Assembly (NCBI RefSeq): GCF_035084215.1
Contig: NC_090354.1
Coordinates: 2,790,001-2,854,000, forward strand
Reading direction: 5' to 3'
From: Heptranchias perlo
Lineage: Eukaryota
DNA: 64,000 nucleotides
Part shown: piece by piece, positions 32,387 through 44,320 of the stretch
How the letters are laid out: each line of letters begins with the position of its first letter
Position numbering within the stretch: position 1 is the first letter of the stretch
Made by a program: the position numbers and the translations under genes
Notes under the pieces: model-generated
The model's database searches: none
Seen by the model: the letters and a program-made list of their open reading frames with translations, nothing else
Told to the model about the DNA's origin: nothing

Positions 32387-32566
32387 CTTTGTAAAACTGA
32401 CTTCGCTTCTTGGACGCGGAATCCTCCCTCGCCTGCCCTCCGTACTGGTTGCGAGAAATATCAGCTGCCGGATCGAAAGAGTGCGATCCTGGGAGCTCAC
32501 TGTACGAGCCTCGTAAAGGGCACTGAGCCCCCAACTGCTGAAGCACTTGCGCCAGTGTCTGCTTCC
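32387..32566 (-). CDS. Linker exon 6 of Tigger-hAT chimeric gene (..REDSASKKRSQFYKG)
   Basis: tctctcag| acceptor, AAAG|gtacat donor, 180 nt, open in the phase 1-1 frame. Confidence 0.75.
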
Positions 32567-33654
32567 CTGAGAGAAAGAATAATGCAAGAAATAGTTTTTA
32601 TTTTTCTCTTCTTCCCCCTTCCCCTTCTATCCTGATGGTGCTGATTAAGGCAGGCTACAGTCCCATGGGTGTAGGCTGCTGGCTATAGCCTGACTGAAGG
32701 GGCCAATTCTTGTGAGCTTGTCCCCCTGCAAGTTTAAATGTTTAGAGAATCTGGACGGTTGTCTGCAGTGTAAGTGCCTCTTTAAACCTGACTTGGCACC
32801 GTATCGGAGTTACACCGTGTCTGCTACCAAACCCAAGTGGTGTGAGACTGCCTGTGCCTACCACTGCTCTCTGGATCCATCAGTCCCAGTTCATATGGTA
32901 ACTTTAGCATCGTTGTGGCAACCATTTTTTGCAGCGATGCTAAAGTTGCAGGCAGGGATTTTTAGCTTGTGCGTTCGCGAGCCCTCGATTTTCCTGTGAA
33001 TTCCCTGACAGGGAATTCCCCATCAAAGAAGAGCAGGGGAGTTCTTAGTGTCCTGACCAACATTTATCCCTCAGCCAATATCACTAAAAACAGATTATCT
33101 AATCATTATCACATTGCTGTTTGTGGGACCTTGCTGCGCGCAAATTGGCTGCTGTGTTTCCCTACATTACAACAGTGACTACACTTCAAAAGTCCTTCAT
33201 TGGCGTGAAGCGCTTTGGGATGTCCTGAGGTTGTGAAAGGCGCTATAGAAATTAAAAATCTTTCAGTGTGGGCGAGCAGACACCCCATAAATTCTTTATA
33301 ACTCCTGGATCATCCTGGAGAGCAAAGATAACTCAAGGTTCCTTTTCTCCATTACCAGACACTTCCTTAAACTCCTCTCCCTTGCCCCCTCACCTATTAA
33401 CAACACCACCCCACCAATACTGCTCTGGAACATCAGTCCAGATTATGTGCTGGAGTCCTGGAGTGGGGCTTCTGACCCAGAGGCAAGAGTGTATCAACTG
33501 AGTCAAGCTGATGCTTAAATATAATTCAGTTTGTTGTATTTCCTAAACTACAAAAAGGAAAATGTTGGTTCCCAGGATCCTGGTCACTTGGAGATTGCTT
33601 TGAAAAGAAAAGAAAGTCAGGGTGTCATCTTAAAGTCACTTCAACCCCAAAGAA

Positions 33655-34450
33655 ATAAAGACTTGTATTTATATAGTGCTTTCACGACCTTGGGACGTCC
33701 CAAAGTGCTTTACAAACAGTGAAGTACTTTTGAAGTGTAGTCATTGTTGTAATGTAGGAAACGTGGCAACCAAATTGCGCACAGCAAGATCCCACAAATA
33801 GCAACGAGATAACATAAGAACTAGGAACAGGAGTAGGCCATACAGCCCCTCGAGCCTGCTCCGCTGTCCAATAAGATTACAGCTGATTTTCTACCTCAAC
33901 TCCACTTTCCTGCCCTATTCCCATATCCCTTGATTCACTCAGTGTCCAAAAATCTATTGATCTCAGTCTTGAATATTCTCAACGACTGAGCATCCACAGT
34001 GCTCTGGGATAAAAAGTTCCAAAGATCAACAATCCTCTGAGTGAAGAAACTTTTCCTCATCTCAATCCTAAATGGCTGACCCCTTATCTTGAGACTATGA
34101 CCCCTAGCTCTAGATTCTCCAGCCAGGTGAAACAGCCTCTCAGCATCTCCCCTGTCAATGACCAGATAATCTGTTTTTACTGATGTTGGTTGAGGGCTAA
34201 ATATTGGCCCAGGACACCTTCCCTGCTCTTCTTTGAAATAGTGCCATGGGATCTTTTACACCCACCTGAGAGGGCAGATGGGGCCTCAGTTTAACATCTC
34301 ATCCGAAAGATGGCACCTCTGACAGTGCAGCGCTCTCTCAGTACTGTATTGGAGTGTCAGCCTGGATTATGTGCTCAAGTCTCTGGAGTGGGGCTTGAAC
34401 CCACGACCTATGGACTCAGAGGCAAGAGTGCCACCCACTGTGCCATGGCT
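33655..34450 (-). mobile_element. Deu-domain SINE interrupted by a CR1 3' fragment (~33811-34158)
   Basis: SINE sequence stops at ..aacgagata and resumes at aatgaccagataatc around a CR1 tail. Confidence 0.75.
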
Positions 34451-34496
34451 GAAAGGTTTACAGTTTACTGTAAGTGGTTCTGTACAGTGACCGTAC

Positions 34497-34682
34497 CTTT
34501 GTAAGAAGGAATGCTTTGGCTCTGACGTTCTATGGATGGGGATTCTTCCTCTTGCAATATCCGCTCGTGCCTGTTGCGCACAGCAATTGTGCGATAAATT
34601 GGGGTCTTGGTTCTCATGATCTCGTCGGAGGGATTGTCTGAGGGGCACGGTCTGTGTCTGTGATCTGGCAACTCTTCTGGAC
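34497..34682 (-). CDS. Linker exon 5 (..PSDNPSDE..RILQEEESP..PSYKG)
   Basis: tctgacag| acceptor, AAAG|gtacgg donor, 186 nt, phase 1-1, open frame, similar to linker exons 2 and 4. Confidence 0.75.
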
Positions 34683-41042: not shown

Positions 41043-41440
41043 TTCACTCCCTCTCTCCTTTTTCTTCTCTTTCCCTCCTTCCTTCTTACCTTCCTTTTTT
41101 TCTCCTTCCCTTCCTTCCATTATTTTACCCTATCCTTTCTCCCTTTCCTTCCCTCCCATCCTCCGTTCCTTACTTTCCGACCCTTCCCCCCTTTCCTATC
41201 TCCCTTCCTTTTTTTTGCTTTCCTCTTTTCCTTTTGTCCTTCCCTTCCTTTCTTCCCTTTCCTCCTCCTTCCATCCTTTCCTCCTTTCCTTTCTCTTCCA
41301 TTTTCACTTCTTTCCTTTTCCTTCGCCCCTCCCTTACTATCTTTCTCCCTTCTATTCCAAGCCTGTCCTTCCCTGCCCTCTAATCCCTTTCTTCCCGTCC
41401 ATCCCTTCCCTTCCCATCCCTCACTTCCATTTTTTTCCCA
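41043..41440. repeat. Polypyrimidine (TTCC/CT-rich) low-complexity tract
   Basis: About 400 nt almost entirely C and T. Confidence 0.9.
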
Positions 41441-43344
41441 TCTATTTTGGTCCCTCAGGCACATATTTCGAAAGGAACTCTTAAATTTGAAAGGAGCTAT
41501 ATCTAATATTGTTGTATGACTAATACTTTATTTAATGTCCGGAGGAGAGATTAAATCCAAGAAATTCCTGTTCTGTATAGCTGAATGGTAGAATCCAATT
41601 GTCTCCTTACCTGTCCCCACTGAAGGTGTTGATTCATAGCTAACCTTCATATGTCGGCCTTGACAGTGAGTGTTGACAAGCTATTCAACTGCAAAGGGCA
41701 TCACAGATCACAGACAAGCCTGATCTTGTCCCTCCCTACCTGATGTTCACACACATGCACTTCGAGATAGTGATCAGGAGCAATTACCCTGGTTAATTTC
41801 CTCCTCCCTAACCCAGGACCACTGAAGCCAATTGTAATACTACTACAGCCTGGGATCAACTAACTTAGCAGAGGCCGGGGATTGAATCTGGGATCTTTTT
41901 AATCTGTGTGGCTCATATACTCACTGCTTTAACTGGGCGAGTATTGGGGGAGGGAGGGGGGTGGGTGAAAAATCATCGCATTATTTCTTGACTAAATTTG
42001 CAGCAATAACCTGGCAATCGTTAATCATTTAACAAGAATGTTAGTCTGCATTAACACAGAGGACAGTGATTGCAATCGCTGACATAGAAACTGACTTAGA
42101 ACTGAACCAAACCCACCCCCAAATAAAATTGAAACTGCATATATTGGAAAACACCAGCCGATTCCAGCGAGCAATTGCGAGCCATGTAATCTAATCTGAG
42201 AGTTCAGATGACTGTAATAAACTGCACCTTCTTTGCTCCGCTGGTTCGAGATGTCATTTGACATCCCCCTTCCCCCTGCCCCCCAATTAGATTAATGCCT
42301 TGTAAACACTCCCAAGTATCCATTTTTCTCCATTTAAAAGCCCAGGGAAGGCCTGTGTCCTGATCACAGCCCAGCTGGGAAATTTATCTTTTGGTGTCTA
42401 GTATAATGTATGGTGATGGAATGGCTGTGATAAGTGAGATGATGTCAGCAAAGTTACATAAAATGTGCCCACTGTACATACAGGGGTGTAAAAGAGTGCT
42501 GCCAATAAGGTGCAGTTTATTATTTGAATTAGAAGCAAGTTAAACCTGTTTACTGTCTGCTCCCATTTCTCGACTGTGTCCATTGCTACAAAAATGCACA
42601 TCAATCACAAAATAGTGAGGTCCATGGAAACAAATTCAATTTACTGTAGCTTAATGCAGAAATTGGAGGGATTAAGGTTTTAGTATTTTCATTGTTGTTG
42701 GTTTATGTTGGAGTCAGTAACATTCATGTGGAGCCATAGAGAAAGGCTGGCATGGCCTGTGTCTCCTGCTACATGCACGCTCGCTCGCTCCCATGTACAC
42801 GCTCTCTCTCTCACACAAACTCAGTCACTCTCTCTCACACACACTCTCTGTGCAACCTCGCAGTGTAACAATTGTATAGTGAAACAAGGACACGCTACAA
42901 GATGTTTCCACTTGTGGGGGAGACCAAAACTAGGGGCCATAAATATAAAATAGGTACTAATAAATCCAATAAAGAATTCAGGAGAAATTTCACCCAGAGA
43001 GTGGTGAGAATGTGGAACTCGCTACCACATGGAGTAGTGAGGCAAATAGCATAGATGCATTTAAGGGGAAGCTAGATAAACACATGAGCAATAGAGGAAT
43101 GGAAGGATATGCTGATAGGGTGAAATGAAGTAGGTGGGAGGAAGCTTGTGTGGAGCTATAAACACCAGCAAAGACCAGTTGGGCCGAATGGCCTGTTTCT
43201 GTGCTGTAAATTCTTATGTAATTCTATGTAATTTCTTCATCATCAGCAAATGAGAGGAAGAGAGCTCAGTCCCCGATCCCCTGATCCCACCCTCTGCCCC
43301 GAGCTTTGGCCGCTCTCGGCAATCCCGACCACGGAAGCACCCAC

Positions 43345-43542
43345 CTGTGTAAAACTGACAGCTGTGGCCTGGTTGCGGGGAGACCTCCTCTTGCTTGATC
43401 CGCTTGTTTTTTTGCTGAGTGGCTACATTTTGCTGAGCCAGGGGGTGCGCTGCCGGCATCTCGTCGGAGGAGCTGTCGGATGACCTCGCCGCCCGCCACT
43501 CACCATGCTGGTTATTGGGCGCCGGTGGAAAGACGGCAGTGC
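43345..43542 (-). CDS. Linker exon 2 (..SSDSSSDE..KRIKQEEVSPQPGHSCQFYTG)
   Basis: aattccag| acceptor, ACAG|gtgggt donor, 198 nt, phase 1-1, CpG-rich coding-like composition. Confidence 0.82.
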
Positions 43543-44149
43543 CTGGAATTAGAGGGGGGTCTGTCAGCGGCCGTACCGTAAGGTGCAAAAGGGATTCACT
43601 CAGCCTGCAGGTAGATGTTCAAACCACAGCCAAAAAAAGCAAAGGGAAGGTATGGAAAAACTATTTCCTCTGATGGGGGGAGTCCAGAACAAGTGGGCAT
43701 AACCTTAAAGTTAGAGCTAGGCCGTTCAGGGGTGATGTCAGGAAGCACTTCTTCACACAAAGGGGAGTGGAAATCTGGAACTCTCTCCCCCAAAAAGCTG
43801 TTGAGGCTGGGGGTCAATTGAAAATTTCAAAACTGAGATCGATAGATTTTTGTTAGGTGAGGATATTAAGGGTCATGGAACCAAGGTGGGTAGATGGAGT
43901 TAAGATCAGCCATGATCGAATTGAATTGAAGGCTGGAGGGGCTGAATGGCCTCATTCTGTTCCTGTGTTTACCACTATTTGTAAAAAAAATGCCTACTGA
44001 TGTAGAGTCCAAAGAATCACATTACTGCAGCCATTAAATTAACAATTTCCAGTTGACATTTTTTTTTAAAGTAATAATTTTGATGCTATGTGGGATGTTC
44101 GTAGATTGAAGTGATCCACCCATCCTCGTTTGGGTAAACTAAGACTCGC

Positions 44150-44320
44150 CTGTATAAAACTGTGAGTCCTGCTCCTCCTGCTCAGCTCCCTCTGAAGGCT
44201 GCTCGCGAGAGTCTTCCTCTGCTTCATCCAGTGGTTGTGTTGTTGTTCCCTCTCCATAGTAGTCTGGGACAGGCTGTCCATCTTGCAGGTAGAGAGATGG
44301 ATGCACAAACACAGGAAAAC
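44150..44320 (-). CDS. Linker exon 1 (..EAEEDSREQ..EQDSQFYTG), GC-AG donor
   Basis: gtttcag| acceptor, ACAG|gcgagt non-canonical GC donor at the same motif position as sibling exons, 171 nt, phase 1-1. Confidence 0.72.

Follow-up and report, generated by a model that had tools for sequence, protein, structure and literature searches.

The window analysed here, a 64,000-nt stretch of Heptranchias perlo DNA (contig NC_090354.1, positions 2,790,001 to 2,854,000), carries on its minus strand a fusion gene that joins a pogo-type DNA-binding exon, six linker exons (E1 to E6) and a hAT-transposase exon. The DNA-binding coding exon (57848..58311) encodes a CENP-B_N and an HTH_Tnp_Tc5 domain, with an ATG at 58304 and a phase-1 GT donor; its acceptor at 58311 was inferred from sequence. 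The terminal coding exon (27731..29541) encodes the hAT body, with an RNase H-like core, an insertion domain and a dimerisation region, and ends with a stop at 27731-27733, past which transcribed sequence reaches at least position 27000. Between the two lie E1 (44150-44320; 171 nt), which is acidic and ends in QFYT; E2 (43345-43542; 198 nt), with an SDSSSDE acidic tract, a basic patch, a SUMO-type IKQEE and the end QFYT; E3 (39864-39998; 135 nt), which starts with a CtBP-type (A)PLDLR, contains VKTEE and ends in QFYK; E4 (37337-37513; 177 nt), with SDSSDTSSDE, IKQEE and the end SFYG; E5 (34497-34682; 186 nt), a recurrent cassette exon with SDE, an invariant PIYRT, an ILQEE that has lost the lysine, and the end PSYK; and E6 (32387-32566; 180 nt), with a short amphipathic helix TLAQVLQQLG and the end QFYK. 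Inspection of the sequence bore out that all six are open phase 1-1 exons with AG acceptors and lengths divisible by 3. The lengths given by a first-pass annotation stood for five of them, whereas E4, put there at 168 nt, measures 177 nt in the RNA contigs with a readable E4 start (X1 record 2, X3 record 16 by length, and X5 record 26) as well as in the database record P0174. The 168-nt form, made by an alternative acceptor at 37504, occurs in several other species' records, the two acceptors being 9 nt apart (window 37505-37513). With the 177-nt E4, the reading frame spans 3315 nt and encodes 1104 aa.

The donor of E1 is GC rather than GT (CAG/GCGAGT, window 44148-44149), and because of it the gene is annotated as two in H. 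perlo: record P0004 (212 aa) consists of the DNA-binding exon, E1 and a read-through at the GC donor, and P0174 (867 aa) begins within E2, both being identical to the window translation. Splits within the linker also occur in several other species' database records. A reading of the exon ends, acceptor-like by eye, as recursive or dual splice sites was dropped, E3 to E6 ending in AAG or GAG.

Contigs from two organisms carry the linker exons spliced in order and with unbroken full inclusion. We compared four sequence runs, three from one sample matching the window organism and one from a relative about 95% identical, with window 27000-46000; all pieces are contigs flagged 'RNA?', whose source is not on record as RNA, yet they skip introns, and the results are based on 32 of 94,634 pieces and 15 of 1,251 joints in tables dominated by short interspersed element (SINE) repeats. 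X1 record 2 runs from the hAT exon through a gap of 180 letters, the length of E6, to E5 and E4; X3 record 16 holds 573 letters upstream of the hAT exon, matching E6, E5, the 177-nt E4 and 30 more; and X5 record 26 contains E1, E2, a 137-letter gap fitting E3, then E4 and E5. Two further pieces, X1 record 6 and X3 record 22, run into E2 at 43540, matching a joint between E1, with its GC donor, and E2. Directly or via gap length, the contigs thus support the junctions from E1 through hAT. Such co-inclusion, together with the full-length records of six species, rules out mutually exclusive exon use. No exon skipping was seen among the 32 pieces, a weak negative because contigs lose rare forms and repeats swamp the tables.

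Database records hold relatives from 20 chondrichthyan species, of which 11 are sharks, 8 are batoids and one is the chimaera Callorhinchus, and our exon mapping covered 36 records, 35 of them chondrichthyan. Both transposase parts stand in one protein in records of 10 species, and six shark species have records holding all parts. Linker exons were found across chondrichthyans, chimaera included, so that the conservation in relatives expected by the first-pass annotation is present, and their number differs among lineages: E3 is missing from both chimaera records, and records of three stingrays (Hemitrygon, Hypanus and Mobula birostris) are without E1 and E5. Between horn shark and chimaera, identity is 52-64% in the linker exons (E1 35/55, E2 39/66, E4 31/50, E5 39/62, E6 31/60), 70% in the hAT part (418/596) and 96% in the DNA-binding exon (145/151); we take the fusion gene to be roughly 400 million years old. 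Isoform records skip E5 in Scyliorhinus torazame, Heterodontus and Amblyraja, E5 with E6 in S. torazame, E3 in Hemitrygon and Hypanus, and E2 with E3 in Hemitrygon, while E4 is skipped in none of the 35 chondrichthyan records. Further forms, on record for S. torazame and Heterodontus, start from an alternative first exon and are without the DNA-binding region. About 85 nt past the E3 donor lies an inverted repeat (39411-39564 and 39625-39778) whose 154-nt arms are 99% complementary and enclose a loop of 60 nt. It is probably a foldback element of recent origin, and a hairpin formed by it in the pre-mRNA could affect E3.

The DNA-binding exon matches CENP-B_N (E 2e-10) and HTH_Tnp_Tc5 (E 5e-11) in Pfam, and protein comparison suggests very strong constraint on the two predicted pogo-type helix-turn-helix DNA-binding domains. 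DDE_1 had no match in the window exons or the full-length orthologues. A search with this exon, made within its own genome only, gave a next match of 57% identity. This closest paralogue, L012 (C31:9199162-9199578), has a frame that enters the pogo catalytic domain slightly before a phase-1 GT donor, and it may be another spliced fusion; two further loci, L014 and L015, hold intact pogo-type DNA-binding open reading frames without the continuation of a normal transposase.

For the hAT body, the structure model folds confidently and its Foldseek matches include Hermes transposase (E 1e-9); the full-length fold had a mean predicted local distance difference test score (pLDDT) of 41 and was not used. 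A Pfam hAT dimerisation match lies just below cut-off in the terminal exon, and neither an N-terminal zinc finger of its own nor zf-C17orf113 was matched at the hAT part. Among the matches listed, the hAT part finds its next relatives at about 40% identity (Mytilus being named) and has no close bony-vertebrate match. In its own genome the next match is 27% identical, so that the gene is single-copy. We also observed at L009 (C10:83233179-83234264) an intact 863-aa hAT-like open reading frame whose N-terminal region resembles a zinc finger; it is a candidate for another domesticated hAT gene. Catalytic residues were assigned by alignment to 59 relatives and by what we take to be the hAT motifs. 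Residues D379, D449, C477, H480 and W545 (P0174 numbering) are kept in 18/18 chondrichthyan rows, but the third catalytic Glu, E807, is present in 3/18 of them (the window sequence, the chimaera and one manta record) against 58/59 other rows. As eight different residues replace it in the remaining 15 rows, the Glu is not under constraint.

Upon aligning the 15 exon pairs against 2,000 shuffles and comparing orthologue-family profiles by hhalign, we found sequence similarity that shows E2, E4 and E5 to be tandem copies of one phase 1-1 exon, with E3 probably a further copy in this family. The pairwise z scores were 18 for E2-E4, 7.0 for E2-E3, 6.8 for E2-E5 and 5.9 for E4-E5, all reaching the floor of 2,000 shuffles, and E2-E3 still gave p=0.004 once the last five residues were removed. 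The hhalign probabilities were 98% for E2-E4 (E 7e-14), 92% for E2-E5, 80% for E4-E5, 52% for E2-E3, 45% for E3-E4 and 29% for E3-E5; E values span 7e-14 to 2e-5 across E2, E4 and E5 and are weakest for E3, at 1e-4 to 6e-4. The four exons share the consensus SD..SDE..(K/E)R(I/V)K(Q/T)EE..H.Y.FY. Because E2, E4 and E5 are all present in the chimaera, their duplication came before the chimaera split, and that of E3 possibly came later. Within the window no seventh copy was found, and own-genome queries with E2 and E4 returned only each other, plus two matches at E>1 with stops. In 80 kb around the paralogue L012, the module had no match below E 0.28. Eight matches to the linker in other proteins (protein lengths 604-1924 searched) were all orthologues, a linker search of the Atlas clusters gave no usable match, and no Pfam family matched the six exons at E<0.1; a KRAB-B-like origin of the module likewise found no Pfam support.

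What all six exons may have in common is their end. Scored over the three residues that precede the last full codon, the real ends were equalled by 0/200,000 shuffles, or by 0/5,000 when any in-register position was allowed, and for E1 and E6 alone p was 5e-5 (0.0016 with any position). The end motif first described for all six is thus beyond chance, although two of its details did not stand: the final 'G' supplies a single base to a codon split across the junction, and that codon encodes, after E1 to E6, G, A, V (or D if E4 is short), G, G and G, with Gly at 4/6 junctions, and the P-S-Y of E5 falls outside the motif. G is the usual last base of exons. On the simplest view, the common end would have been inherited from the ancestral exon and retained beside the splice donor. 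A different view, which we hold to be doubtful though the strongest of the alternatives, takes the end itself as the selected unit, either a splicing signal (exonic enhancer or extended donor context) or an aromatic peptide motif for one partner, which E1 and E6 gained or kept independently. Four ends do share CAGTTTTAYAMAG, synonymous positions included, and the Tyr is kept in 8/8, 9/10, 14/14, 9/12 and 12/12 orthologue rows in E1 to E5 while its neighbours drift. However, the E6 Tyr has become Cys or His in 10/15 rows and the F drifts to S, L or P. A 16-nt pattern was drawn post hoc from the four ends: the 3.25-Gb genome contains it 51 times (against 28 for a control), 4 times within these 12 kb, and at the 30 of the 47 other sites that we inspected it marks no module-like exon.

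Vestiges of the same module had also been proposed on either side of the linker, and neither held up. At the end of the DNA-binding exon, the W in EQWT falls on the W that precedes the catalytic domain in pogo and matches the W of 3/5 pogo-like open reading frames aligned (L012, L013 and L016). The GETSY at the hAT start is transposase-derived sequence: the BLASTP alignment to the Mytilus transposase starts exactly at K-G-E-N-S, in register with that protein and 33 residues ahead of its RNxY motif, and the residues that follow vary among orthologues. As K/GENS aligns in exact register with KGENSH, the zinc-finger end of the Mytilus transposase, the hAT exon was cut in right at the end of its own finger. 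The terminal K-G of E6 restores the transposase dipeptide, either by descent or because AAG/G is a common joint.

According to the first-pass annotation, all six exons were copies of one module, skipped freely to tune the distance from the DNA-binding to the catalytic domain. We consider this unlikely, and more so than selection on the exon end. It is in keeping with the common 1-1 phase, which leaves every subset in frame, with the shared end, with a weak E3-E6 profile match and with the skipping of E5, E5 with E6, E3, and E2 with E3 in isoform records. Tandem duplication does hold for E2, E4, E5 and probably E3, but the exon end is all that E1 and E6 have in common with it, and this is the sole evidence tying them to the family. 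The similarities E1-E6, E3-E4 and E3-E6 (p about 0.007) are not significant without the last five residues, and E1 and E6 against the others then give p of 0.08 or worse; E1-E3 and E1-E2 are not significant at all (p about 0.10). By hhalign, E3-E6 reached 6% (E=0.007, the best for E6), all E1 pairs stayed below 2%, and none of them fell under E 0.036. The proposed subtype of E1, E3 and E6 was likewise not supported, E3 aligning with E2, E4 and E5. In-frame skipping is found on record, but in just four patterns among 35 records, always with E4 kept and next to full-inclusion contigs in both organisms, and not as the 'up to 64 combinations' once envisaged. A tuned distance to a catalytic domain finds no support where the third catalytic residue is lost in 15/18 rows. 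The cassette events are not a combinatorial length code.

The linker is predicted to be disordered, as the structure model leaves it unstructured (pLDDT <50) except for one short helix in E6, and it is rich in conserved short motifs. APLDLR is invariant in 14/14 E3 rows and PIYRT in 12/12 E5 rows, the SDE acidic tracts are also invariant, and the K and E of psi-K-x-E are invariant in E2 (10/10 rows) and E4 (12/12 rows). As many as three psi-K-x-E sites turned up in 0.025% of shuffles (p=2.5e-4). The consensus of the motif that CtBP binds is PxDLS (PMC5536941). Such clade-wide invariant blocks, the 52-64% identity to the chimaera and the skipping of E5 in three distant species argue against a near-neutral spacer whose motifs are leftovers from the exon that was duplicated and whose skipped forms are splicing noise permitted by the symmetric phase. 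Symmetric exons do tolerate skipping, and the stingrays lost two exons and diverged fast; even so, we give neutrality little credence.

A slightly poorer case can be made for a domain-swapped nuclease or recombinase, present or past, whose pogo domains would direct an active hAT core to new DNA sites under the control of the linker. The invariant D, D, CxxH and W, the Glu of the window sequence, the chimaera and one manta, and the confident hAT fold fit this, whereas replacement of the Glu in 15/18 rows and the single copy, with its next genomic match at 27% identity, make it improbable. Its elaborate version, a splice-regulated recombinase or nuclease in which the pogo domains would retarget a hAT core still catalytic in the D-D-E lineages and the SUMO/CtBP exons would switch between cutting and silencing, is the least plausible account that we considered.

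We instead favor, as the probable though far from certain reading, a domesticated regulator that would act in the nucleus on specific DNA sequences, most likely by repression, and in which a few cassette exons would set the amount of corepressor carried. The pogo domains would read DNA, and the hAT body would act as a self-association scaffold, by analogy with ZBED1. The repeated module would supply basic patches resembling a nuclear localisation signal (NLS), acidic serine tracts and putative psi-K-x-E SUMO-type sites, to which E3 would add a putative CtBP-type PLDLR. The set of cofactor sites would change with the skipping of E5, on record for two sharks and a skate, and of E3, on record for stingrays, as well as with the alternative start that drops the DNA-binding exon.

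Several observations weigh against this regulator. The 18/18 invariance of D1, D2, CxxH and W is more than a pure scaffold requires. PxDL[SR] occurs in 1.3% of shuffles and a broad CtBP-type pattern in 5%; PLDLR deviates from the PxDLS consensus as the available part of PMC5536941 gives it, and no PLDLR variant reported with CtBP was found in the literature searched. The lysine of the SUMO-type site in E3 is lost in catshark and houndshark records, and the E6 Tyr is kept in 5/15 rows. The skip patterns come from database gene models, not reads; the full-length chimaera record comes from an earlier model that a 232-aa fragment has since replaced; and the joint of the DNA-binding exon with E1, outside 27000-46000, is supported by database records.

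Set beside known systems, the gene is neither a TIGD-type gene, having no DDE_1, nor an active hAT element, having D-D-E in 3/18 rows, no finger and a single copy, as far as its sequence tells. In the available part of a survey of host-transposase fusion genes (bioRxiv 10.1101/2020.05.07.082677), such genes are alike in their multi-exon structure, splicing-captured transposase domains, combination of a DNA-binding domain with a presumed regulatory region, and predicted repressor role; here too, a transposase domain stands in frame with non-transposase exons. The shark gene differs from the fusions described there in combining two transposase superfamilies and in using as its regulatory part a disordered array of exons of its own making in place of KRAB, SCAN or SET. 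That survey began from tetrapod annotations, and 'shark' has 0 occurrences in its text as available. With the pogo-derived TIGD2-7, CENPB, JRK, POGK and POGZ (PMC7386202, in the part available), the gene has the CENP-B_N plus HTH_Tnp_Tc5 pair in common, but all of those listed retain the DDE domain, while its own pogo sequence ends at the W before the catalytic domain and is followed by a hAT body. Genes derived from hAT, of the ZNF862/PRDM11/C17orf113/ZMYM1/FAM200/GTF2IRD2 type (Atlas clusters; Pfam PF27073) have the same hAT sub-type of RNase H-like body and a dimerisation region, and databases label the orthologues 'C17orf113-like' or 'ZNF862-like'. By contrast, the shark gene has a pogo-type N-terminus and no zf-C17orf113 finger, which is present in its closest outside relative among the matches listed, the Mytilus protein (38-40% identical); the likeness is by clusters, not by tree.

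SCAND3/ZBED9 sets a precedent for assembling a host gene out of several mobile elements, and its C-terminal part is likewise a hAT transposase; it differs in being mammalian and in combining SCAN, a GINGER2 integrase and a Charlie10 hAT, with no pogo DNA-binding region and, in the part of PMC3575427 available, no mention of duplicated linker exons. ZBED1/hDREF is, in the available part of PMC7471704, a hAT-derived transcription factor with a link to SUMO that needs hATC self-association for DNA binding; it differs in its native BED finger and single transposon origin. Symmetric, disorder-encoding exons from internal tandem duplication, enriched in SUMO and NLS motifs, are the same phenomenon in PMC3632108, which, as far as it was available, gives a human genome-wide statistic, whereas the shark locus is a chondrichthyan case within a transposon chimera. 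No paper on this fusion gene was found in the open-access literature searched.

The exons of a PX-domain sorting nexin (PF00787 matches) lie on the plus strand at window 10938-11027, 13125-13259 and 14154-14267, tail to tail with the fusion gene, and presumably resemble SNX11. On the same contig, eleven homeobox matches form a Hox-like cluster at 3410866-3570405, about 0.56 Mb from the fusion gene; by synteny, we take this cluster and the sorting nexin neighbor to suggest the HoxB region.

The two-transposon origin and the motif content are more interesting than the combinatorial and catalytic claims, which were overstated: a gene from two transposon superfamilies gained an array of exons that grew within it, and did so in a lineage outside the starting set of the main survey. 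With 96% identity of the DNA-binding exon between shark and chimaera, the site it targets has probably stayed fixed and could be found. Furthermore, E3, which has the only CtBP-type motif, is present, skippable or absent depending on the lineage and would thereby offer a natural test of cassette exons as corepressor switches.

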